From the IMG/VR virus record IMGVR_UViG_2585427765_000009: DNA of 23,882 bases. One strand, given 5' to 3'. Both the position numbers and the translations under genes were made by a program. How positions within the stretch are numbered: the stretch's first letter is position 1; every line of letters starts with the position of its first letter. Origin of the DNA: a virus. Lineage: Duplodnaviria > Heunggongvirae > Uroviricota > Caudoviricetes. The notes beneath the pieces were generated by a model. That model was not told the origin of the DNA and did not search any database. It saw only the letters and a list, made by a program, of their open reading frames with translations. Shown piece after piece: positions 1 to 23,819 of the stretch.

Positions 1-766
1 CCAGCTCCACTTCTGTCCGGTTTTTCCAGCTCTTACGGTGTATTACCTCCGCTTTGTAAAGGCCATTGATGCTCTCCGCCATCGCGTTGTCATACGAGTC
101 ACCAGTACTTCCTGTTGATGCCAGTAATCCGGCTTCCTTAAGCCGCTGTGTGTAGGCCAGCGATACATACTGAGAACCTTTATCACTGTGATGGACTGTG
201 CCGGACGGTTGACGGGCCCATAACGCCTGCTCCAGAGCATCCAGCACGAATGTCGTTTCCATAGACGATGAGACCCGCCACCCCACGATGTATCCGGCAA
301 ACACATCAATGATGAACGCCACATAGACGAAGCCCCGCCATGTGCTGACGTAAGTAAAATCAGCCACCCACAGCTGGTCAGGTCGTTCTGCCACGAACTG
401 ACGGTTTACGCGGTCGCCTGCGGCAACGGCTTTCCGGCTGATGGTCGTACGGACCTTTTTACCCCGGAGAACACCGGCAAGTCCCATAACCGCCATGAGA
501 CGTGCCACAGTGCATCTGGCCACTCTGATACCTTCCCGTAACAACTGACGCCAGACTTTACGCACACCGTACACCTGATGATTTTCATCGTATACGCGCT
601 GTATCTCTTTCTTCAGCCAGTCATCGCGCTGCGCACGGGCACTGCGTTTATCCGGATGATGTCGCTGTTGCTGACAGTGGTAATACGTTGACGGGGCAAT
701 ATGCAGTTCGCTGCATAGCGGTCCGACCCCGTACTGCTCACGCAGCTTATCCAGCAGTGGCATCAT
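1..766 (-). CDS. IS3-family transposase orfB (DDE catalytic domain), 3' end beyond window
   Basis: My translation from ATG at 766: MMPLLDKL...[31 protein letters not shown]...[11 protein letters not shown]; no stop before the window edge, so absent from the ORF track. Confidence 0.8.
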
Positions 767-1089
767 TTTTTCCAGAGGCGGTCGAACTCCGCCTTCGCAA
801 AATAAGCGGAAGCCTGGCGAAGGATATCGTTACTGCGGCGCAGTTCACGATTTTCACGTTCCAGCTCTTTCAGACGCTGACGTTCAGCGGTGGTGAGCCC
901 GCCATCACCGCCTCCGGTATCCCGCTCATGCTGGCGTACCCAGACACGCAGAGTCTCCGGTGTACAGCCAATCTTTGGGGCAATGGAACAAATTGCCGCC
1001 CACTGTGAGTCATATTCGCCCTGACTTTCCAGAACCATACGAATCGCTCTCTGACGGACTTCGGGGGAAAAACGAGTATTTTTAGTCAT
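763..1089 (-). CDS. IS3-family transposase orfA (helix-turn-helix / leucine zipper)
   Basis: 108 aa [22 protein letters not shown]...; SD AAGAGG upstream; stop overlaps orfB start. Confidence 0.85.
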
Positions 1090-1143
1090 CCTGTTTACCT
1101 CTTTCTCAGGGAGTTTAGTCTCCAGGATTCCCGGGGCGGTTCA

Positions 1144-3070
1144 GACTGTCTGGCAGCAGCAATCTGTCCTTCCACCTGTGCCTGTTGCTGACTGTACTGC
1201 AGCAATAACCGGGTGGCCTCATCATTACGGGGGTCGCGTGTTTTTTTCTTACCGGATGCCAGGGCTTTCTCGTAACGTTCATTTTCACGTTGTATCGCCG
1301 CATCCCTGACAGCCTGATCGGCGTACTGCATGGCATTAATACGCGCAATTTCACGCTGATGTCGTGCTGCTTCCGTTTCATTCATCCGGTTCAGTGCAGC
1401 ATTTTCAGCATTACGGCGTTTCTGTTGCTCCTGATAATTCCGCTCTGCCTGCTCTTTTGCATCCTGCAAATCCTTCTGGCGTTTTTTCTCCTGAAGCTCG
1501 TTAAGACGCTGCTGATCGTACTCAACCTGAGAAGATGATGCCGTCCAGGGGAGTCTTTTCGCCCGCACACTTTCTCCTGTAAAGCGGAAATCTGTTCATC
1601 CAGCGAGTCTTCACGACCAATATTCATGGCCGCATCCCAGAAACGACTCCATAAATCAGACAGATACTTCAGCGTACTGCCCAGCGCATTGAGGTTATTA
1701 TCAATATCCGCAGTACGCCGACCGGTTTCCTCTGCCAGTGCAGACATGGCTATCCGTGCCGCATCACTGGACCGCCCCTGTTCCCCAAGGACGCGTATCT
1801 GCTCAAGCTGAGTGGCAGTAAGAAAATGCAGCTCATTGTCCAGAGCCTTCGCGGCATTTACAGGATCATCCTTCAGCCGCTTAAACTGATTTATGGTATC
1901 GCTGACCGACTGGCCAACCGATCGCTCCATCTGTGCGGCAGCTCTCGCCACCATACCGATATCGTTTCCACGAAATGCACCACTCCCCACCACCTGAGCC
2001 AGCGCACCGGCTGCAGCATGTTGCGTAATACCATTCCCGGAAATAGCACGACTGAGCGTCCACAGCTGCCCGGCAGTGACTCCGGCATAATGCCCCGTCA
2101 GCGACAACTGGCGGTTAAATTCTTCCCCCTCCTTCTGACCATCATACCAGGCTTTACCCAGACCATAGACGGCCGCGGCAATACCGCCAATAACCCCGCC
2201 CAGCATCATGCCTTTCGGTGACATCAGTGTGTCTATCCATCCGGCACGGTTAGCCAGCGTTATCCCGGATCCCCTCAGCGCACCTAAATTGCCGCGAGCC
2301 AGTTCACCTATCAGAACGCCTATCTCCTGGCGGGCCGCTGCACTTTTCAGACCCAGCGAATGCGTGGCTTTTCCTGCCTGCTCCATTTTGCGGATATACA
2401 CTTCTGCAGCACTGCTTACCCCCAGCTGGGCTGCCTTGGCACGAAGCAACTCAGAAGAAGAAAGATTCTGGCGGGTTGCCTGCTCTTTAAGCTGACGGAT
2501 AAACGCCACTTTCTGTCGGGTAGCCTCTGCCTCAGCCTGCGTAAGAACACCGGTTTTCGCCGTAACCTCAGAAATCAGCGCCAGATAATCCTGCTGACCA
2601 ACCCCGCCACTGTTTCTGGCCTGTCGGATCTGCTGCTGAATACGCTGTAATTCCTGCAGCCCCGCACTGGCCTGTTTCACACTGTCAATCTGACGATAAA
2701 ACGCGGCAGCCGCTTTATCCTGAGCCTCCGCCAGAGCCATGGCCTGCGCCTGTTCCTCGCGCATTTTCTGGCTCAGTGCCTCCATACGCTGGCGGGTTTG
2801 CTCCACCTCGCGGGCCATGCGTTCATGAGCCTGTGCGCTCTTCTCCACCGTCTGCGCATGGACGGATGCGGCTGTTGCAGCCGAAGAAGCCGCCTGCATT
2901 GTCTGCCGGGCGGCCTGAGTCTGACGCTCCATAAAACGCTGCATACGGGCAGAAGACCGTTCTGCATCGCTGGCTGCACCATTCAGAAGGTTTTTGATAC
3001 GGGGAATTTCATTTTTAAACTCTGCCGCATCAATCCCCAAATCAATGACCAGGTTGGCTATCTGGTCCAT
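1144..3070 (-). pseudogene. H: Tail tape-measure protein (lambda H-like), frameshifted near 1545-1575 and truncated by the IS insertion at 1143/1144
   Basis: N-terminus MDQIANLVIDLGIDAAEFKNE resembles lambda H MAEPVGDLVVDLSLDAARF; SD GGAGGTG before ATG at 3070; coding continues in a second frame (ORF 1095..1568) that reads into the IS terminus. Confidence 0.8.
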
Positions 3071-5845: not shown

Positions 5846-6161
5846 TGAGTTTTACCGGCACTTCTTCTGCACTGGTTCCGGCATCTGCCCAGACAACCCC
5901 GACCAGCGGATCAGAGCCGCTGTTAGTCAGCTGAACTTTTCCGGACTTCAGATAAACCTTCTTACCCGTTTTCATGTCATCCGTTTTCAGCTTAGGTAGC
6001 ATAAACACACCTTCGGTCATGCCGTCGCCTGTTTCACCCTGTGGAATATCGGTCAGCGCCACCGCAAAAACATCACCCACCTGCACCAGATCTCCGCTAC
6101 TGATGGCTGCACTGGCAACAATCGCCACCGTTTTTCCTTCTTCTACAAAATTCTTTGCCAT
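5838..6161 (-). CDS. Small head-associated structural protein (DUF2190-like, tentative)
   Basis: MAKNFVEEGKT...GDLVQVGD...; SD GGAGA before ATG at 6161; directly downstream of the capsid gene. Confidence 0.5.
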   Translation of the reverse strand: MAKNFVEEGKTVAIVASAAISSGDLVQVGDVFAVALTDIPQGETGDGMTEGVFMLPKLKTDDMKTGKKVYLKSGKVQLTNSGSDPLVGVVWADAGTSAEEVPVKLNV

Positions 6162-6203
6162 AACTGTCTCCGCACAGCCCCGTTCAGGGGCTGATTTCAG
6201 GTA

Positions 6204-6223
6204 CAAAAAAAGCCCTTACGGGC
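6204..6223 (-). terminator. Predicted intrinsic terminator downstream of the capsid gene
   Basis: Minus-strand GCCC-GTAA-GGGC followed by TTTTTTTG. Confidence 0.5.
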
Positions 6224-6247
6224 CATCAGAGTTGTTGTCTGCGACGT

Positions 6248-8206
6248 TTACGCCGTACATTTCACCAGACCGCGGTGATCAACTGGCGCGACACCGGCGT
6301 CAATACGCACTTTCGTTGTCACGCCATCCACACTGAAGCCCTCCATCTGATCAATATATGGCGTATCCACACCGTTGAGATAAGCCACTTCAATCGTATC
6401 GGAGCCTTTTGACGCAGCCAGGTAGAAGGTGGTCTGGCTGTTATCATCAAGACGAGGCTCTGCAATAACGGTCGCAAAATCTTTCACCGGGTTAATAATA
6501 CCGGCGTTAATGTCAGCCCCCTTGACACTTGAGGAGCGAATGACCTGGTTAGCAACAGACTCCATCGCCGTCGGTACCAGTACGAACGCAGGACGAATAT
6601 TCAGATGACGCTCCCCCTCTTTCTGAACGCGCATCAACTGGCGGGCTTTATCCAGCGATGCCACGTCCATTGCAGCGCTCTCCAGTACGTTTGTATGTTT
6701 CGCTTTATCGAACAGACTTACATTATCTGTGGAGATTTTCGGGTTAGACGTCAGAATGGCATAAACCAGATCGGCAATAGTGGATTTCGCCGCACGGCCC
6801 AGCTTCATCGGGACATCGGTCAGCATATTCAGATCATCATTGATAATGGCCTGACGGGTGATACTGAACAGCTCGCCATAGGTCGCCAGTGCAATAGTGG
6901 CCTGTTTATCTCCGGTGGTGACGTATTTATATTCCGCCCCTTCACGCACCTGACGCAGAGCACTGAAGCCCCCCATACCCACACGATGGGCAATTTTAAA
7001 ATCAGACAACTGACCTTTCCGCGTCCACTGTTCATAGGTTTCAGGGGCATCTTCCCAGCCCTGCAGAATGGCTTTGTTCGCAACATCCAGCAGAATATTA
7101 CCGAAGTCAGACGTACTGTGTGTGAACGCCGCACCGACCATCTGCATCGGGTTATAACTGGAAACCCCAATACCCCGTTCAGTCAGTGACATACGGGCAT
7201 ATTCACGCAGGGTCATCCCGTTGTAGACATTATCACGTTCGGTTTTTTCAAATCCGGCACGCGCCATCAGCGCCTGGCGGATCCCGTCCCCCACAAAATT
7301 ACCGTTACCGGCATAAATATGAGCCGGGGTATTTTTATTGGATGGCGTGGACTCGCGCCCCATCTCGTTCAACAGCTTTTCGCGGGCCTGCTCCAGCGAA
7401 CATTCAGGATCGGCAAGACACTGAGCCTGCAGCGTCTGATAACGCCCGCCAAACATGGCAAACAGATCATTAATACCGTTTACACGCGCTTTTTGCTCTG
7501 CCAGTACCTGCGCACGGATGCTGTTTTCATCCACCACGGGTGCTGCTGCCTGCACTGGCGTCCGGGAGGCTTCAGGTTCATTATCCTGTACGCGTGGAGC
7601 ACTGTTGCGTGGCGGAGTAATCATGTTTCGAATGGATTCCGGCATCTTTTTAAATTCCTCTGTACGTTTTGACTGAATACATGCCATTGCCTTAACGGCT
7701 GGCGTTACCTGATCAGCAAATCCCTGTGCCAGACATTCGGCACCGGACATCCAGGTCTCATCCGCCAGCATGGCAGCAATTTCATCGGTGGTTTTCCCGG
7801 TTTTCTGTGCATAAGCGGGTAACAGAACCGCCTCAACTTTATCGAGCAGGTCGGCATAGGTGCGCATGTCCTCCGCATCACCGCCCGTAAAGCCAAATGG
7901 TTTATGAATCATCATGAAGGTGTTTTCCGGCATAATGACCGGGTTTCCCACCATCGCAATGACCGACGCCATTGACGCCGCCACACCGTCGACATAAACG
8001 GTAATGGACGCACCATGTGTTTTCAGTGCATTAAAAATGGCGATGCCTTCAAAGACATCGCCACCCGGTGAATTAATATGGAGATTAATATGGGTGATAT
8101 CGCCCAGTGCATTCAGATCACTGATAAACTGCTTCGCTGTAACACCCCAGAAACCAATCTCGTCATAAATATAAATATCCGCGTCACTCTGGTGACCAGC
8201 CTGCAT
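6248..8206 (-). CDS. Prohead protease (ClpP/S14-like) fused to HK97-fold major capsid protein
   Basis: N-terminal region has INSPGGDV and GVAASMASV ClpP-like motifs; central coiled-coil linker; C-terminal ~330 aa capsid-like; start taken at ATG 8206 (MQAGHQ) just after portal stop, not at 8467. Confidence 0.75.
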   Translation of the reverse strand: MQAGHQSDADIYIYDEIGFWGVTAKQFISDLNALGDITHINLHINSPGGDVFEGIAIFNALKTHGASITVYVDGVAASMASVIAMVGNPVIMPENTFMMIHKPFGFTGGDAEDMRTYADLLDKVEAVLLPAYAQKTGKTTDEIAAMLADETWMSGAECLAQGFADQVTPAVKAMACIQSKRTEEFKKMPESIRNMITPPRNSAPRVQDNEPEASRTPVQAAAPVVDENSIRAQVLAEQKARVNGINDLFAMFGGRYQTLQAQCLADPECSLEQAREKLLNEMGRESTPSNKNTPAHIYAGNGNFVGDGIRQALMARAGFEKTERDNVYNGMTLREYARMSLTERGIGVSSYNPMQMVGAAFTHSTSDFGNILLDVANKAILQGWEDAPETYEQWTRKGQLSDFKIAHRVGMGGFSALRQVREGAEYKYVTTGDKQATIALATYGELFSITRQAIINDDLNMLTDVPMKLGRAAKSTIADLVYAILTSNPKISTDNVSLFDKAKHTNVLESAAMDVASLDKARQLMRVQKEGERHLNIRPAFVLVPTAMESVANQVIRSSSVKGADINAGIINPVKDFATVIAEPRLDDNSQTTFYLAASKGSDTIEVAYLNGVDTPYIDQMEGFSVDGVTTKVRIDAGVAPVDHRGLVKCTA

Positions 8207-13341: not shown

Positions 13342-13628
13342 TTTGTCGCTCCATGCGTTTGTTCTTCACTTGTCGCTAAAAATATAACTTCAAATCTTTG
13401 AGCGTGGAAGTGTGGAAGTCACTGCGCGTTGATCTTGCATACATCGGTCGTTTGTTTCCCCCCTGGCATATCAGAAAAACCAGGTTTTATAGCGGAATCA
13501 ATACTATGTATTTTCCACCTGACTTTTGACATAAATCATCAATAAAACATATAAAGGTCAGACCAGATTGAAACGATAAAAACGATCTTGCAAACTACGT
13601 GCCCTCATACCATATGGAAGGTTTATCT

Positions 13629-14039
13629 ATGGATCAGGTAGTCATTTTTAAACAAATATTTGATAAAGTTCGAAACGATTTAAACTATCAATGGTTTTAT
13701 TCTGAGCTAAAACGTCACAATGTCTCACATTACATTTACTATTTAGCTACAGATAATGTTCATATTGTATTAAAAAATGATAATACAGTGTTATTAAAGG
13801 GCCTAAAAAACATTGTGTCTGTCAAATTTTCAAAGGATAGGCATCTTATAGAAACGACCTCTAATAAGCTGAAATCCAGTGAGATCACATTTCAGGAATA
13901 CAGAAGAAACCTTGCTAAAGCAGGAGTTTTTCGGTGGGTTACAAATATCCACGAACAAAAAAGATATTACTATACCTTTGATAATTCATTACTCTTTACT
14001 GAAAACATACAGAGCACATCACAAATATTTCCACACTAA
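13629..14039 (+). CDS. Hypothetical protein, possibly DUF1398/YbcV-like
   Basis: 136 aa from ATG at 13629 with SD GGAAGG; only plus-strand gene in the phage; AT-rich; family guess from memory only. Confidence 0.45.
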
Positions 14040-15717: not shown

Positions 15718-16032
15718 CTAACAACCCGTAATCGAGTTATCAGAACTGTTAATTTTTATGGTATACCGCGCCTCTGAACAGGGGCGCGTTTCTGGCAACA
15801 GCTCGTCCCCTTCACATAACCCGGCAGCAACATCCAGGAAGACCTGTCTGATGCTCCTTCTGGCTGCTGACTCATAAAACTCCAGCGCGGCACCTTCAAC
15901 ACGGTCCAGCGAGATGTCCAGGGCAAAAATTTCACCGTCAAAGCGTTTTTTGTCCCGTAACGCTAAAGTTACCGTAACTTTATTCTCAAAATTGCGGATC
16001 CCTTTCACAATCAGTTCATATTTTTGAGTCAT
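15718..16032 (-). CDS. Hypothetical soluble protein inserted between holin and endolysin
   Basis: 104 aa; ATG 5 nt after holin stop with SD GGGGAGAG; no TM or signal peptide. Confidence 0.6.
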   Translation of the reverse strand: MTQKYELIVKGIRNFENKVTVTLALRDKKRFDGEIFALDISLDRVEGAALEFYESAARRSIRQVFLDVAAGLCEGDELLPETRPCSEARYTIKINSSDNSITGC

Positions 16033-16036
16033 TGAA

Positions 16037-16252
16037 TTACTCTCCCCGTGCAGCCTTACGCTTGTCTTCTTTAATCTTGAAATAAAGGTTTGTCAGGTAC
16101 GTCAGCAGGCCAAATACCAGGCTACCCAGCACACCTATTGCTGCCCACTGTGAGGGCGTGACTTTATCGAGCAGCTGTAAAAACCAGTAGCCAGCACTGC
16201 CTGCGGAGGTGCCGTAGGCAATGCCTGTTGAAATTTTGTCCATGGATTTCAT
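16037..16252 (-). CDS. S: Pinholin, phage 21 S-type, dual start
   Basis: [71 protein letters not shown]; SD GGAGGTG; the ORF-track extension to 16309 is rejected. Confidence 0.9.
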
Positions 16253-16351
16253 AGCCTCACCTCCGCACGGAACGGATGGCATAGTTATTATGTGTAGGCT
16301 TCCAGACACATCAATCAGAGCCTTAATTGATATATATGCTGGAGACGATGC

Positions 16352-16378
16352 AATATAAAAAGCTCGCCGTAGCGAGCT
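16352..16378 (-). terminator. Predicted intrinsic terminator between cargo lipoprotein genes and holin
   Basis: Minus-strand AGCTCGC-TACG-GCGAGCT followed by TTTTTATATT. Confidence 0.55.
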
Positions 16379-16503
16379 AATAAAATGTATTTCTCTGATA
16401 TTATGTTTATTTGTATTAGCTCAGACTTGACATCACAGGTTTCGTATATAGAACATCATCAAATCTGTCAGTTTGCTATGAATGAGATATAGTAATTGAA
16501 GAG

Positions 16504-16899
16504 CTAACCTCGCATGTCAAAGCCAGATTTCTGAAAATCTCTGTAGACTTCCGGATTGTTGAAGGCCGGAAATTTGGCTTTATGAGCTGCGGACTTTATC
16601 GCTTCGCAATAGGCTTTATCACCGTTACTGGTAGATATTTTTAACGCCGTGCCATCCTGAGAGAATTCCATATGCAACCTGCATTTTTTCCCTTTCCAGT
16701 TATGCGGCTCATCAAGTTTGGCATTAATTGCAGCTCTGATTCCCCGCGCTTGCGCCCCCCATTCATCCTGATCATCCCAGCGTCCTGAACTGCAACTACC
16801 TGTAGCAGTAGTTTTGTGGCAATCTGAAGGGTGTAAAGGTGTGCATCCCGCAACAAAACCGACCCAAAAAGTCAACATAACGATTTTCTTTAATCCCAC
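16504..16899 (-). CDS. Lipoprotein with TolA domain III-like C-terminal domain (paralog 2)
   Basis: GTG start with SD GAGGAG; lipobox VAGC; C-terminal KGKKCRLHMEFSQDGTALKIS...YCEAIKSAAHKAKFPAFNNPEVYRDFQ aligns with the TolA C-terminus. Confidence 0.75.
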   Translation of the reverse strand: MGLKKIVMLTFWVGFVAGCTPLHPSDCHKTTATGSCSSGRWDDQDEWGAQARGIRAAINAKLDEPHNWKGKKCRLHMEFSQDGTALKISTSNGDKAYCEAIKSAAHKAKFPAFNNPEVYRDFQKSGFDMRG

Positions 16900-17049
16900 T
16901 TCTTGCTCCTCAATCCATTAAAATCTCAGCAATAGTAGTTGTTACGTCCGCCACTGGCTCAGAGCTGACTATCCGCTAAATTTAGCTCAGTGCCGTAGTT
17001 GTGTCAGAACAAACCTAAGCCGAAACCGTTTATTACAAAACAATAAATA

Positions 17050-17478
17050 TCAGGGTTTAAAATCCAGCACCCCATTTTGAAATACTTTATATACTTCCGG
17101 CGAAGGGGGGGCAGGTATATCAGCATTCTTTATCGCATTCATCGCTTCACGACATAAATCGAGGTCTCCACTTTCTCTTTTAACCTCCAGTAGAAGGCCA
17201 TTCGGGGCCATATGCATTCTCAGTGTACACTCTTTTCCTGAATACTTACTCGCATCCCCGAACTGTTTTTCGATGGCGCTCTTGATTTGATGGGCATACA
17301 GACGGATATCCTCACTAACATCAGAAGTACGTTCAGATGAACTCACATACTGTGTCTCTATTGCTTTATCGGAGTAATATGATGTACGGTCATGATAATT
17401 TGTCGATACAGCATCAGTGCACCCGATAATAATCCCACTAATAATCAACGTAAGAATTGATGCGCTACGAAAACCCAT
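17050..17478 (-). CDS. Lipoprotein with TolA domain III-like C-terminal domain (paralog 1)
   Basis: Lipobox IIGC; QIKSAIEKQFGDASKYSGKECTLRMHMAPNGLLLEVKRESGDLDLCREAMNAIKNADIPAPPSPEVYKVFQNGVLDFKP versus TolA QIKSAIESKFYDASSYAGKTCTLRIKLAPDGMLLDIKPEGGDPALCQAALAAAKLAKIPKPPSQAVYEVFKNAPLDFKP (recalled). Confidence 0.8.
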   Translation of the reverse strand: MGFRSASILTLIISGIIIGCTDAVSTNYHDRTSYYSDKAIETQYVSSSERTSDVSEDIRLYAHQIKSAIEKQFGDASKYSGKECTLRMHMAPNGLLLEVKRESGDLDLCREAMNAIKNADIPAPPSPEVYKVFQNGVLDFKP

Positions 17479-17507
17479 TTTTCCTCACATATGTCATATA
17501 GTAAAGG

Positions 17508-17537
17508 ATTATATATACCGTTGTTTTGGATGCTCAA
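17508..17537 (-). promoter_or_regulatory. Candidate sigma70 promoter for TolA-like lipoprotein 1
   Basis: Minus-strand TTGAGC, 18 nt spacer, TATAAT, about 30 nt upstream of the start codon. Confidence 0.4.
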
Positions 17538-18011
17538 ACAGCGAATCAGATCAAATAAAACGCACATTTGTTAACATTTACACAAAGTCTGCGTGGGATA
17601 TTCTGAAAGAATATCCATAATGTAGAGAGAATCTATTGAAGTGCATGGTGCCGGGTGCCTCCCGGTGAATTCAGTACCAGCACCTGAATCCGCGATTATC
17701 CCATATACCTACTGGCTGATTGCCCCTCCGCACAGGGGGATTCACCATGCCAGTTTCTTTTAACAAACTCCCCGCAAACCAGACAACAGTCAACCGCCTG
17801 AATTGTGAAGTATTTAAAAATTTCTCCCGCTAACTGATACCCGGCTAACAGTCTGGCGTTTTCTTTTTCAGCAACGGGAAAGCAACAACCACCACACCCG
17901 CCACCAGCACACCGTCAGCCAGCACTGACATTATCCGGCTGCTGCAATGCCATTCACAAAAACAGTAAGCAATCACTTTTTACCGTAACAGGTGATAATC
18001 CAGATATGTAT

Positions 18012-18365
18012 CTACCCCAGGTGAGTAATCCGAAGTTCATCCATACCACAGGTCCTGGCTATTCTGTTGTACTCCTGAACAAGAGCAAATAATTCTGAAT
18101 TAGCAACCATGAACTCATCGCAAACCCTCTGTATAGCATCACTATTCAGAATAATAACGTCTCTTCCCGAAAGACGATCAGGAGTACAAAACAAAACTGT
18201 CAAACGGCTGAAGGCCTTTGCTCGTGCTGCATTGACTATATCAATACGCTGCCTAAGGATGAAACACCCCGACGCCTCATCAATATTCACTCTACCCACA
18301 CCATATGAATGATAAATATTTAATGCTGAAAAAACCATTAGACGGTATAACAAACACTCAATCAA
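18012..18365 (-). CDS. Hypothetical protein in cargo locus downstream of tRNAs
   Basis: 117 aa ORF in AT-rich DNA; start uncertain (TTG 18365 or ATG 18338); no clear RBS. Confidence 0.35.
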   Translation of the reverse strand: MIECLLYRLMVFSALNIYHSYGVGRVNIDEASGCFILRQRIDIVNAARAKAFSRLTVLFCTPDRLSGRDVIILNSDAIQRVCDEFMVANSELFALVQEYNRIARTCGMDELRITHLG

Positions 18366-18475
18366 TACTTAACAGAACTTTTATTTTTGACAAACATATA
18401 ATATTTTCAACAAGATCCTGAGCCAAGTATATTTCAGTATAAGGCTCTGCCGGAAGGAATCTGGAAGAATGAATA

Positions 18476-18552
18476 TGGCGCGCTGTACTGGATTCGAACT
18501 AGTGACCGATTGCTTAGAAGGCAATTGCTCTGTCCGGCTGAGCTAACAACGC
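18476..18552 (-). tRNA. tRNA-Arg, anticodon UCU
   Basis: 77 nt cloverleaf folded by hand: acceptor GCGTTGT/ACAGCGC, D-stem GCTC/GAGC, anticodon stem ATTGC/GCAAT, loop CTTCTAA, T-loop TTCGAAT, CCA encoded. Confidence 0.8.
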
Positions 18553-18652
18553 TGAATACCGATAATGGACCGCCATCGGGGACCCGCCCCCGCACCAACA
18601 ACCCTGTTATCGCGTCGTCTGCTCTTCCTGATAAGCTAATGGCGGTTTGTGA

Positions 18653-18728
18653 TGGTGGCCCTTGCTGGATTTGAACCAGCGACCTGGCGATTATGAGTCG
18701 CTCGCTCTCACCACTGAGCTAAAGGGCC
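18653..18728 (-). tRNA. tRNA-Ile2, anticodon CAU (lysidine type; software may call it tRNA-Met)
   Basis: 76 nt; near-identical to E. coli ileX as recalled; acceptor GGCCCTT/AAGGGCC, anticodon loop CTCATAA, T-arm GCTGG-TTCAAAT-CCAGC. Confidence 0.8.
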
Positions 18729-18761
18729 GTGAGCAGAATAATAACGGTCCGTAATTAATTC

Positions 18762-18791
18762 CGCAATAAAAAACCCGCTCGGCGGCGGGTT
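18762..18791 (-). terminator. tR'-like intrinsic terminator of the late leader transcript
   Basis: Minus-strand AACCCGCCGCCGAGCGGGTT followed by TTTTTTATTG, ~45 nt downstream of the candidate pR'. Confidence 0.6.
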
Positions 18792-18838
18792 GTAGAAACT
18801 CTTCTAACGTCAGGCATAAAAAGCCCATCATTATGACG

Positions 18839-18866
18839 AATTTACCACAGATTCCGGAAAAATCAA
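18839..18866 (-). promoter_or_regulatory. Candidate late promoter pR' (with Q-utilisation region)
   Basis: Minus-strand -35 TTGATT, 16 nt spacer, -10 TAAATT (lambda pR' is TTGACT / TAAATT), immediately after the Q stop. Confidence 0.55.
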
Positions 18867-18871
18867 CCTTG

Positions 18872-19693
18872 TTACCTAGTTACCTTTTTTAACTGCCGCT
18901 CAGCCCATGCTTCTTCAATATCAAACCGGGTCACCAGCGCATCATAGAATTTCTTAACTGTTTTTTCCCATGACGCGCGTGTTATCTGGTTTGTCACCTC
19001 GCATATAGCATTAAATGCCTCCGTTGATGGTAGTCTTTCATAGCCACGACCACCACAACGCTGGCAGTCTCTGATAACAGGCATACCACGTTTTACCGAC
19101 TCTTCACGGTGAATGGCGACACCACGCCCACGGCAATCCTTACAGGCGGTGGAAACCTCACCCTTTCCGCCACACTCCGGACAGGCAACTTTTACCACCT
19201 CCCTGACTTTTTTCCATTCTTCCCAGTAAGACGGATACACACCTTTCGTACACTTTGCCCATACCGGCGGCTTACCATCCGGATACTGGACCTTGTTTGT
19301 AAAAACTACGCTTTCAATAAATTTTTCCCCATAGCAACAAGGGCACTGCTTTTTACTCGCTGCGCTGCGGGCATAATCCTCAAAAGCGTACGAAGCCATA
19401 ATGCGCATCACTACCGGTTTTATTTCTGCCGGAAGTTTTCTCAACGCCGCCACACGATCGCACCGACTGAGTGCATAATCTGCCAGTAATTCTGTTGCCC
19501 GCGCCCTGTCATTCATACTGATGCCCATTTTCCCCAGGAACGCAGAAAACCCCATCTCAGCCCGATTCTGTGTCATGCCCTGCGCGGCCATCACATCAGT
19601 GATACTCAGCGCATCTTTTGACGTTGAGGCCGATGCATCGGTCAGGCAAGGGGATTTTGGGGAGTAGTATTTCGGTAAATCTTCCAGTTTCAT
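18872..19693 (-). CDS. Late-gene antiterminator, Q-like (Cys-rich, zinc-binding type)
   Basis: Position between rusA and pR'/tR'; CxxC clusters CPCC, CPECGGKG, CKDCRGRG, CQRCGGRG; ATGA overlap with rusA stop. Confidence 0.65.
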   Translation of the reverse strand: MKLEDLPKYYSPKSPCLTDASASTSKDALSITDVMAAQGMTQNRAEMGFSAFLGKMGISMNDRARATELLADYALSRCDRVAALRKLPAEIKPVVMRIMASYAFEDYARSAASKKQCPCCYGEKFIESVVFTNKVQYPDGKPPVWAKCTKGVYPSYWEEWKKVREVVKVACPECGGKGEVSTACKDCRGRGVAIHREESVKRGMPVIRDCQRCGGRGYERLPSTEAFNAICEVTNQITRASWEKTVKKFYDALVTRFDIEEAWAERQLKKVTR

Positions 19694-22671: not shown

Positions 22672-23484
22672 CTAGACACTTCCGAGCCGCTGATAATATT
22701 GTTTTTCGTATTCAGTTGGTGGCATATGATCACTCGAACCATGCCGACGCTTACTGTTATAAAACATTTCGATGTAATCAAAAATATCACCGCGAGCTTC
22801 TTCTCGCGTTCCGTAGATCTTTTTCTTTATCCGTTCACGTTTCAGTAACTGGAAAAAACTTTCTGCGACTGCGTTGTCATGACAGTTACCGCGACGGCTC
22901 ATACTGCCCTCCAGCCCGTGTGATTTCAGGAACGACTGCCACTCATAGCTTGTGTACTGACTGCCTTGATCAGAATGAACCAGCACCTGCTTTTGAGGAT
23001 TACGTCGCCACACGGCCATCAGAAGTGCATTCAGGACAATATCCTTTGTCATCCGGGGCTGCATTGACCAGCCAATAACTTTGCGCGAGAACAGGTCAAC
23101 AACCACAGCCAGATACAGCCAGCCTTCGTGAGTCCGGATGTAGGTGATGTCCGTTACCCAACGCTCATCCGGTGCTTCCGGGTTGAACTGCCGCTGGAGC
23201 CTGTTGGGCGTCACGATGCTGGTTTCACCCTTACGTGCCCGTGGGCTACGGTACCCGACCTGAGCCCTTATCCCGGCACGCTTCATCAGTCGCCAGACAC
23301 GGTTAACTCCGCACTGTTGTCCGGTATCCCGCAGGTCGAGGTGGATCTTGCGATAACCATAAACGCAACCCGACTCCAGCCAGAACTGCTTTATCAGCCC
23401 CGTCAGTCTCAGGTCAGCATGATGCCGCCGTGAATCCGGCTGCTGAAGCCAGGCGTAAAAACCACTCGGATGCACATCCAGCAC
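22672..23484 (-). CDS. IS3-family transposase orfB (DDE domain); true N-terminus supplied by frameshift fusion with orfA
   Basis: WVTDITYIRTHEGWLYLAVVVDLFSRKVIGW...HSDQGSQYTS...NAVAESFF motifs. Confidence 0.85.
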   Translation of the reverse strand: MLDVHPSGFYAWLQQPDSRRHHADLRLTGLIKQFWLESGCVYGYRKIHLDLRDTGQQCGVNRVWRLMKRAGIRAQVGYRSPRARKGETSIVTPNRLQRQFNPEAPDERWVTDITYIRTHEGWLYLAVVVDLFSRKVIGWSMQPRMTKDIVLNALLMAVWRRNPQKQVLVHSDQGSQYTSYEWQSFLKSHGLEGSMSRRGNCHDNAVAESFFQLLKRERIKKKIYGTREEARGDIFDYIEMFYNSKRRHGSSDHMPPTEYEKQYYQRLGSV

Positions 23485-23540
23485 CCGACAAAGCAGTCGG
23501 ACAGGCCAGCAATGGGTGTTGTCACGGATAAAGGCGTACC

Positions 23541-23819
23541 TCAGTCGGACAGCTTTGCGAAGTACGCCGCGGCTTTTTTTAATATGTCCCGTTCGTCGGT
23601 AACCCGCTTCAGCTCTTTCTGGAGGCGTCGGATCTCAGCCTGAGCGTCTGACTGGACTTTATTGGTTGAGGAATCCGGGCCATATGCCTTTATCCAGGCA
23701 TAAAGACTGTGGGTGGTGATACCGAGACGTGTTGCCACGCTGGAAACAGAATGGCCGCGATCAACAACCTGTTTTACCGCTTCAATTTTAAACTCTTCGG
23801 GATAACGCTTACCGCTCAT
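23541..23819 (-). CDS. IS3-family transposase orfA
   Basis: HTH region plus leucine-zipper-like C-terminus ending AAAYFAK; SD GAGAGGTG; ORF-track GTG at 23825 or ATG at 23819. Confidence 0.85.
   Translation of the reverse strand: MSGKRYPEEFKIEAVKQVVDRGHSVSSVATRLGITTHSLYAWIKAYGPDSSTNKVQSDAQAEIRRLQKELKRVTDERDILKKAAAYFAKLSD

Follow-up and report, generated by a model that had tools for sequence, protein, structure and literature searches.

Two tandem prophage genes of Escherichia coli encode predicted lipoproteins with a TolA domain III fold that may act as decoys of a periplasmic co-receptor

Small phage lipoproteins of the outer membrane that face the periplasm, such as Llp of T5 and Cor of phi80/N15, act in superinfection exclusion, keeping phages and colicins out by masking the receptor FhuA. 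The C-terminal domain III of TolA (TolAIII) is a common gateway for group A colicins, for related bacteriocins of Klebsiella, Enterobacter and Serratia and for filamentous phages, and its production in the periplasm reportedly renders cells tolerant to colicins A, E1, E2 and E3. Periplasmic proteins are released when TolAIII is exported alone to this compartment (Wan & Baneyx 1998, as cited in PMC6195910), and cells infected by Ff filamentous phages show a g3p-mediated immunity that comprises colicin tolerance and superinfection resistance (Boeke, Model & Zinder 1982, as described in PMC3102678). Here the analysis concerns two tandem genes, termed T1 and T2, on the minus strand of a 23,882-nucleotide stretch of viral DNA (IMG/VR record IMGVR_UViG_2585427765_000009; the whole stretch is referred to as the window), which is a lambdoid, Qin-like prophage remnant of Escherichia coli, 100% identical to strain E203449 and adjoining rspAB/ynfA. 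Both genes encode short predicted lipoproteins that end in a TolAIII domain, and sequence and analogy together suggest that these are probably mobile-element envelope lipoproteins that block entry by imitating a periplasmic co-receptor.

The TolAIII identity of both proteins was supported by profile, pairwise and structural comparisons. Matches to Pfam family PF06519 (TolA C-terminal) reached 82.6 bits (E 2e-23) for T1 and 54.6 bits (E 1e-14) for T2, the gathering cutoff of the family being 25 bits. In phmmer searches against the TolAIII chains of the PDB, residues 55-142 of T1 aligned without a gap to residues 334-421 of E. coli TolA (E 5e-28), and residues 50-129 of T2 were matched with E 5e-9; the identity to E. 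coli TolAIII amounted to 59% (52 of 88 positions, no gaps) for T1 and 31% (27 of 88) for T2, with Cys84-Cys109 of T1 as the counterpart of the TolA C363-C388 disulfide. AlphaFold models made from 23-sequence alignments showed a predicted local distance difference test score of ~90 over the domains and of <50 over residues 1-50 of T1 and 1-38 of T2. When these models were compared with the PDB in Foldseek, the top matches were TolAIII entries in all cases, the best being 2x9a_B for T1 (root-mean-square deviation (rmsd) 0.6 Å, template modelling score 0.96, 59% identity) and 3qdp for T2 (rmsd 1.1 Å, template modelling score 0.92, 31% identity), and both models superposed on the TolAIII complexes with g3p and colicin A. 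An earlier note, made on this DNA from its letters alone, had claimed homology to the TolA C-terminal domain for both open reading frames (ORFs) and had proposed the Foldseek comparison as a check; profile, phmmer and predicted structures all agree with that claim.

Matches of T1 and T2 to full-length TolA profiles were confined to model positions 265-387. For NF007065 (cutoff 213 bits) the scores of 107.8 bits (T1) and 53.7 bits (T2) both fell short, and for TIGR02794 (cutoff 59.45) T1 passed through its C-terminus alone with 75.6 and T2 failed with 47.2. Neither protein has the transmembrane anchor of TolA domain I or the long helical domain II, so that neither can transduce TolQR force, and both genes lie outside a tolQRAB-pal cluster, within which tolA itself is found in K-12. 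T1 and T2 are TolAIII-domain proteins, not TolA. The TolA homology as such is already visible in public automated annotation, in which RefSeq gives T1 the name “tolA: cell envelope integrity protein TolA” or, for the identical strain, lists it as a pseudogene of tolA that lacks the N-terminus; these labels arise because the full-length TolA model matches only the C-terminus, and they expose a systematic annotation error that gives lipoproteins of 142 aa the name tolA or the status of tolA pseudogenes. In PHROGs both proteins fall into phrog_5772, a family listed with function unknown. What appears to be new is the biology of T1 and T2, the homology itself being not new.

Lipoproteins were called by rule, requiring a lipobox of the form [LVI][ASTVI][GAS]C no further than 35 residues from the N-terminus, together with an n-region and an h-region. 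The N-termini of T1 (MGFRSASILTLIISGIIIG-C20) and T2 (MGLKKIVMLTFWVGFVAG-C19) each consist of a basic n-region, a hydrophobic h-region and a lipobox inside this distance, in keeping with the lipoboxes IIGC and VAGC that the earlier note had read in two minus-strand ORFs, both of which are present, and three Cys, that of the lipobox and the pair of the domain, were invariant in 23 of 23 aligned family members. According to the +2 rule, the residue that follows the lipid-carrying Cys decides the sorting of a lipoprotein, Asp acting as the Lol avoidance signal. This residue is Thr in both T1 and T2 and Thr, Ala or Ser across the family, with no Asp, so by the rule both proteins are predicted to reside at the inner leaflet of the outer membrane. 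Between lipobox and domain, T1 has a Ser/Thr/Tyr-rich linker (residues 21-50) that is predicted to be disordered, and T2 a conserved, Cys-containing one (residues ~20-44; window 16767-16842), PLHPSDCHKTTATGSCSSGRWDDQDEWG. The T2 linker was almost invariant between genera (PLHPSxCHKTTATGSCSSGRWDDQDEWG) despite its predicted disorder and includes two extra conserved Cys. A resemblance of this linker (SSGRWDDQDEWG, SSGRW...EWG) to the TolB box of colicins (DGSGW...W) was considered and is not counted as evidence, the Trp spacing being off by one and the key residues unconserved.

Both genes have well-placed translation signals, with a GAGGA Shine-Dalgarno sequence 4-5 nt 5' of the ATG of T1. The GTG start of T2 and ~60 nt upstream of it are conserved among prophage, plasmid and chromosomal copies, so the start at 16878 assigned to T2 by the Prokaryotic Genome Annotation Pipeline (PGAP) in RefSeq, which yields a protein of 124 aa without the basic n-region, is too short.

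The surfaces by which TolAIII is bound have been mapped. Its β3 strand (A415-K420) and the helix 334-349 form the site for the N1 domain of g3p (g3p-N1), colicin N (ColN) and the TolB N-terminus, the binding being a backbone β-strand addition, and its β2 strand (L375-P380) together with K368, K379 and K396 forms the colicin A (ColA) site (PMC3365938, PMC4339652, PMC7391070). Of the 16 positions of the g3p helix, 11 were identical to TolA in T1 and four in T2. Over the seven positions of β3 the corresponding values were five (GVLDFK in T1 for APLDFK in TolA, without the proline) and two, and over the nine positions of the ColA site they were four, plus three conservative changes, and two. From these sequence comparisons T1 is plausibly a close mimic of E. 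coli TolAIII, and T2 appears to combine the TolAIII fold with diverged surfaces and possibly has other ligands. The earlier proposal that both proteins mimic TolAIII therefore holds for T1, which retains the mapped sites, and fits T2 poorly: its three mapped surfaces are unlike those of TolA, so that it is no simple mimic of the E. coli domain.

On the basis of sequence, predicted models and analogy, it is proposed that T1 and T2 may serve as co-receptor decoys against group A colicins and the g3p of filamentous phages, a reading to which a probability of roughly 0.4 is given. The functional idea of the earlier note, a decoy against phages and colicins or a rewiring of Tol-Pal, is thus plausible. 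Each protein would hold a copy of TolAIII immediately beneath the outer membrane, on a flexible tether of ~25-30 residues. To enter, group A colicins and related bacteriocins, like the g3p N1 domains of F- and I-pilus phages, must dock on TolAIII in the periplasm by β-strand addition, and the tethered copy would meet them there before the motor-coupled TolA does; the invader would then be trapped in a complex uncoupled from the inner membrane and the proton-motive force, and entry would fail. In lysogens, the candidate promoter of the cassette would drive its expression, with a late, Q-dependent transcript adding to it on induction, and T1 would act as the close TolAIII mimic; T2, an older paralog that moves horizontally, has altered surfaces. 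Affinities for TolAIII are ~1 µM for ColN and g3p and ~40 µM for TolB, so a moderate level of decoy could block the invaders with Tol-Pal spared. The points cited in support of decoys are the PF06519 match and fold, the sites retained in T1, the laboratory precedent, this gap in affinity, and the mobile carriage, selection and moron-like anatomy described below. More tentatively still, the two proteins and their relatives on plasmids and chromosomes may together represent an unrecognised, widespread defence class of outer-membrane-tethered TolAIII copies; if true, roughly one E. coli genome in four, pO157 carriers among them, would encode a broad tolerance to Tol-dependent bacteriocins and to pilus-specific filamentous phages.

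The distribution of the two genes was examined in bacterial genomes, plasmids and phages. T1 was found in 888 of 5426 complete E. coli genomes, nearly always on the chromosome, and T2 in 1269 of the same set, at 825 chromosomal and 525 plasmid places. Among the IMG/VR prophage contigs with T2 (n = 80), T1 lay directly upstream in 79, and the same holin lay downstream in all 72 that had enough sequence; the types of Q and lysozyme varied among the 80. A tblastn search of 50,697 GenBank phage genomes gave mEp460_ev081 as the single carrier of T1/T2, and no TolAIII-like protein was found among the BFVD viral structures at E <= 0.001. Approximately 600 plasmids, of the conjugative I-complex and the pO157 family, carry an 88%-identical copy of T2 directly 3' of the nikB relaxase gene. 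Carriage by elements that gain from protection of their host, such as the I-complex plasmids, whose pili attract IF1, is a supporting argument for decoys, and the g3p of the I-pilus phage IF1 also docks on TolAIII (PDB 2x9a). On pO157 the T2 copy follows the leading-region genes ssb-psiB-psiA-hok and a truncated nikB and precedes toxB.

Single-gene cassettes of the T2 type occur in about 30 species of Enterobacterales. In GTDB species representatives, 30 of 33 T2 loci stood alone on the chromosome, the genera being Enterobacter, Leclercia, Klebsiella, Raoultella, Kluyvera, Citrobacter, Rouxiella, Pantoea, Buttiauxella and Yokenella; synteny was seen only within Leclercia and part of Enterobacter, most species having T2 at different chromosomal sites. 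T2 keeps its start codon, its GAGGAG ribosome-binding site and the ~60 nt upstream in prophage, plasmid and chromosome alike, and thus behaves as a mobile single-gene cassette. The original description of both genes as encoding prophage lipoproteins is accordingly too narrow for T2, whose relatives occur on nikB plasmids and as stand-alone genes of Enterobacterales chromosomes. A profile search of 1.84 billion representatives returned 597 relatives; of the best 150 of these, 96 were of at most 170 aa, and a lipobox was present in 62 of the 96.

Several relatives were found in other surroundings. In Serratia marcescens a chromosomal T2 homolog (loci L004-L007, ~5957-7736) lies 3' of nrdDG and adjoins GmrSD_N and HEPN (RiboL-PSP/MAE_28990) genes, likely a defence pair, a setting counted in favour of decoys. 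On ~290 Klebsiella IncF plasmids a third TolAIII lipoprotein, more distantly related, lies next to a thioredoxin-fold gene; in its copy on NZ_CP070426.1 the linker contains the motif DDLLGNL, which resembles the DDIFGEL with which TolA domain II ends. The nikB-T2 module was also present, at 98-99% identity to E. coli plasmids, in two metagenome-assembled genomes labelled Lachnospiraceae and Treponemataceae (L028, L029), most likely as mis-binned enterobacterial plasmid contigs.

T1 and T2 are real, selected genes. The ratio of nonsynonymous to synonymous substitution rates (dN/dS) was 0.07-0.12 among T2-family copies from prophage, plasmids, Serratia and Enterobacter, a range indicating strong purifying selection, and 0.17-0.32 among T1 alleles. 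Helix α1 of T1 changes faster (dN 0.21-0.27 versus 0.08 in three alleles, from small counts). The two proteins share 29% identity with dS saturated and are therefore old paralogs, which excludes a recent tandem duplication. A recent capture of T1 from E. coli tolA was likewise rejected: dS between T1 and domain III of E. coli tolA is ~2.5 (saturated) at 59% identity, so T1 is no recent fragment of the host gene.

The cassette of T1 and T2 lies between the gene for antiterminator Q and the holin gene, where related prophages hold stx, nanS-p or other cargo (Table 1). The GC content was 0.39-0.46 over 16200-18400 and 0.48-0.53 in the flanks. The two tRNAs upstream, with CAU and UCU anticodons, are of the kinds that precede cargo in Shiga toxin (Stx) phages, and divergent T1 alleles were found alone, directly after Ile/Arg tRNAs and before nanS-p, in Stx-phage-like prophages. 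A 59-bp segment upstream of T1 would, judged by its identity to DNA of Stx phages, mark a recombination slot that these phages and the present prophage have in common. The gene order, this identity and the placement of the T1 alleles by tRNAs and nanS-p make it accurate to say, as the earlier note did, that the pair sits where Stx phages carry stx, and its view of the pair as lipoprotein-anchored look-alikes of TolAIII at a moron position is backed by sequence, profile and fold. The 59-bp segment overlaps a plus-strand ORF fragment (17635-17760) that PGAP lists as an incomplete hypothetical gene.

The expression signals proposed earlier, a promoter ahead of the pair and a terminator before the holin, were both recovered as pattern matches. 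The candidate promoter would set the start of transcription ~22 nt 5' of the T1 start codon, and the terminator 3' of T2 is canonical, with a 7-bp GC stem, a UACG loop and a U-tract (-13 kcal/mol, z = -2.2). Chromosomal T2 copies have a TTGAAA-17/18-AAnAAT element at a conserved place; this element is lost upstream of the T2 of the window and no terminator was predicted between T1 and T2, so that T2 is probably co-transcribed with T1. On induction, Q-dependent late transcription from pR' would be expected to read through the cassette.

Table 1. Positions of T1, T2 and neighbouring features in the window, and of relatives on other molecules where these are named.
Feature	Position	Strand	Remarks
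T1	17050..17478	-	142 aa; ATG start
T1 residue layout			1-20 signal peptide and lipobox IIGC (Cys20); 21-50 linker; 51-142 TolAIII domain
T1 TolAIII-like domain	17053..17328	-	residues 51-142; includes C-terminal β3 edge strand GVLDFKP (APLDFKP in TolA)
T2	16504..16899	-	131 aa; GTG start at 16899; GAGGAG precedes
T2 residue layout			1-19 signal peptide and lipobox VAGC (Cys19); ~20-44 linker; 45-131 TolAIII domain
Candidate sigma-70 promoter	17508..17537	-	TTGAGC-18-TATAAT; 10/12 consensus, best match in 15900-19000
Predicted intrinsic terminator	16351..16378 (hairpin 16378-16361)	-	AGCUCGC-UACG-GCGAGCU then UUUUUAUAUU
P21-type holin (essD)	16037..16252	-	Pfam PF04971; first lysis gene
59-bp segment	17642-17700		identical in stx1B-nanS-p intergenic DNA of Shigella phage 75/02 Stx and several Stx phages
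DUF3927 ORF	17845-17976	-	
ORF of 117 aa, TTG start	18012-18365	-	between tRNAs and DUF3927; unannotated in RefSeq
tRNA-Arg(UCU)	18476-18552	-	
tRNA with CAU anticodon (Ile2/Met; PGAP: tRNA-Ile)	18653-18728	-	
tR'-like terminator	18791-18772	-	
Antiterminator Q	18872..19693	-	Pfam PF03589
T2 homolog pO157p55	pO157 Sakai 53756-54187 (locus L018 3857-4288)		annotated “hypothetical protein”; adjoins truncated nikB
T2 homolog 3' of nikB	plasmid locus L013 6965-7396		
Third TolAIII-only lipoprotein	Klebsiella pneumoniae IncFIB/IncFII plasmid NZ_CP070426.1 (locus L014 6217-7246)		144 aa; lipobox LITAC; 35% identical to T2

Further features of the prophage were noted around the cassette. The holin gene is followed by DUF1327, lysozyme and Rz genes, and the interval from Rz to the terminase genes holds, in opposite orientation, a DUF1398 gene (13599-14039, plus strand) that may represent further cargo. 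The 117-aa ORF between the tRNAs and DUF3927 had no match in Pfam or PADLOC and lies in a region with a GC content of ~0.39. The prophage is defective, with IS3-family copies at both ends of the window (1-1089, 1143-3070 and 22672-23819 are listed for defects), a tape-measure gene that is interrupted and frameshifted, and no early/immunity region from hokD to host rspB; the coordinates of the defects are carried over from the RefSeq annotation of the identical strain.

Several observations weigh against decoys. T2 departs from TolA at all three mapped surfaces (4/16, 2/7 and 2/9 identical positions), and most of its relatives are chromosomal and adjoin none of the mobile-element genes tested, which would fit a housekeeping function as well. 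A decoy that also binds TolB would cost the cell outer-membrane integrity. No positive selection was detected, the region-wise dN/dS of three T1 alleles being 0.18-0.65 and never >1, and the promoter is a consensus match whose conservation does not extend to a divergent T1 allele. A PADLOC defence search gave no match for T1 or T2, and full-text literature searches of a limited collection, by which absence is not proven, returned no functional study of proteins of this type, the hits being unrelated or genome tables with “TolA protein” entries.

The laboratory findings on isolated TolAIII, colicin tolerance and leakage, are a functional precedent for decoys and also for a different and rather unlikely role, in which T1 and T2 would sabotage Tol-Pal: at the outer membrane they would occupy the N-terminus of TolB, or other partners of TolA, and weaken the mobilisation of Pal. 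The outcome would be a leaky or hyper-vesiculating outer membrane that aids the release of phage, or of cargo on induction, together with holin, endolysin and spanin, also improbable in our estimate. The position of the cassette on the Q-dependent late transcript, directly 5' of the holin gene, the nearly invariant T1-T2-holin block (79/80 and 72/72 loci), the nearly unchanged β3 strand of T1, where TolB binds, the hyper-vesiculation of tol mutants and the leakage of cells with free periplasmic TolAIII, as cited in PMC6195910, would all suit such a role. However, T2 relatives are under strong purifying selection on plasmids and chromosomes without lysis genes nearby, the T1-T2 cassette has a promoter-like site ahead of it and a strong terminator between it and the holin gene, holin, endolysin and Rz already make up a full lysis cassette, and the T1-T2 cassette persists in a defective prophage.

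The stand-alone chromosomal genes bear on another explanation, likewise thought unlikely, by which these are accessory envelope proteins with a role in the host and mobile elements are mere carriers; this would concern mainly T2, and an example would be an outer-membrane-anchored receptor for an endogenous periplasmic ligand in envelope homeostasis. The predominance of such loci among species representatives (30/33), with synteny in Leclercia and part of Enterobacter, the dN/dS of ~0.1 for T2, the conserved linker with its two extra Cys and the many short TolAIII-only lipoproteins (62 of 96 short representatives with a lipobox) agree with this explanation. On the other hand, the distribution is patchy, with chromosomal sites differing between most species, the same cassette and upstream region recur in prophage, plasmids and chromosomes, T2 is absent from most E. 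coli genomes, and no ligand beyond the known partners of TolA can be named. That the genes are non-functional debris, a truncated tolA pseudogene fragment caught by a phage, is very improbable: the PGAP label of T1 in the identical strain (“tolA, incomplete, missing N-terminus”) would speak for it, but that label stems from a full-length TolA model meeting a C-terminus only, the ORFs are intact in hundreds of genomes, with gained lipoprotein signal peptides and good ribosome-binding sites, dN/dS is 0.17-0.32 (T1) and ~0.1 (T2), and the saturated dS versus E. coli tolA indicates no recent fragment.

If T1 and T2 are decoys, they would constitute a new and simple form of entry immunity spread by mobile elements, which could help to explain differences between strains in sensitivity to colicins and to Ff/If1 phages and would be relevant for therapeutics based on bacteriocins or phages and for the hosts used in phage display. 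A function would also be provided for pO157p55 and for a gene pair present in ~16-23% of complete E. coli genomes. If they instead sabotage Tol-Pal, they would be natural phage- and plasmid-borne regulators of outer-membrane stability and vesiculation.

Compared with known systems, T1 and T2 share the fold and the disulfide of E. coli TolAIII (residues ~334-421; PDB 1TOL, 2X9A, 3QDP/3QDR, 1S62); T1 retains the β3 edge strand and most of the g3p-contact helix, and T2 has the same topology. In place of TolA domains I and II, both begin with a lipoprotein signal peptide, followed by a short tether of predicted disorder. The TolAIII exported alone in the laboratory (Levengood-Freyermuth 1993; Wan & Baneyx 1998) was, like T1 and T2, an isolated domain in the periplasm uncoupled from the motor, but it was soluble and overproduced, whereas T1 and T2 are natural, predicted to be lipid-anchored, diverged and presumably present at a low level. 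As cargo, the pair occupies the same slot as stxAB and nanS-p in lambdoid phages, after Q, tR' and the Ile/Arg tRNAs and before the holin gene, and both kinds of cargo can run from a promoter of their own and from the late transcript, which for T1-T2 is a prediction; here the cargo is a pair of envelope lipoproteins and not a toxin or an esterase. With Llp and Cor, the proposed decoys would have the blocking logic and the compartment in common. No sequence relation to these proteins was found, Pfam, PHROGs and PADLOC giving only TolA, phrog_5772 or nothing, and the decoy mechanism would be distinct from receptor masking, since Llp and Cor mask the receptor FhuA and T1 and T2 would imitate a periplasmic co-receptor. 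The immunity of Ff-infected cells involves the same interaction of g3p-N1 with TolAIII in the reverse sense: there the phage ligand saturates TolA, and here a copy of TolA would saturate the ligand.

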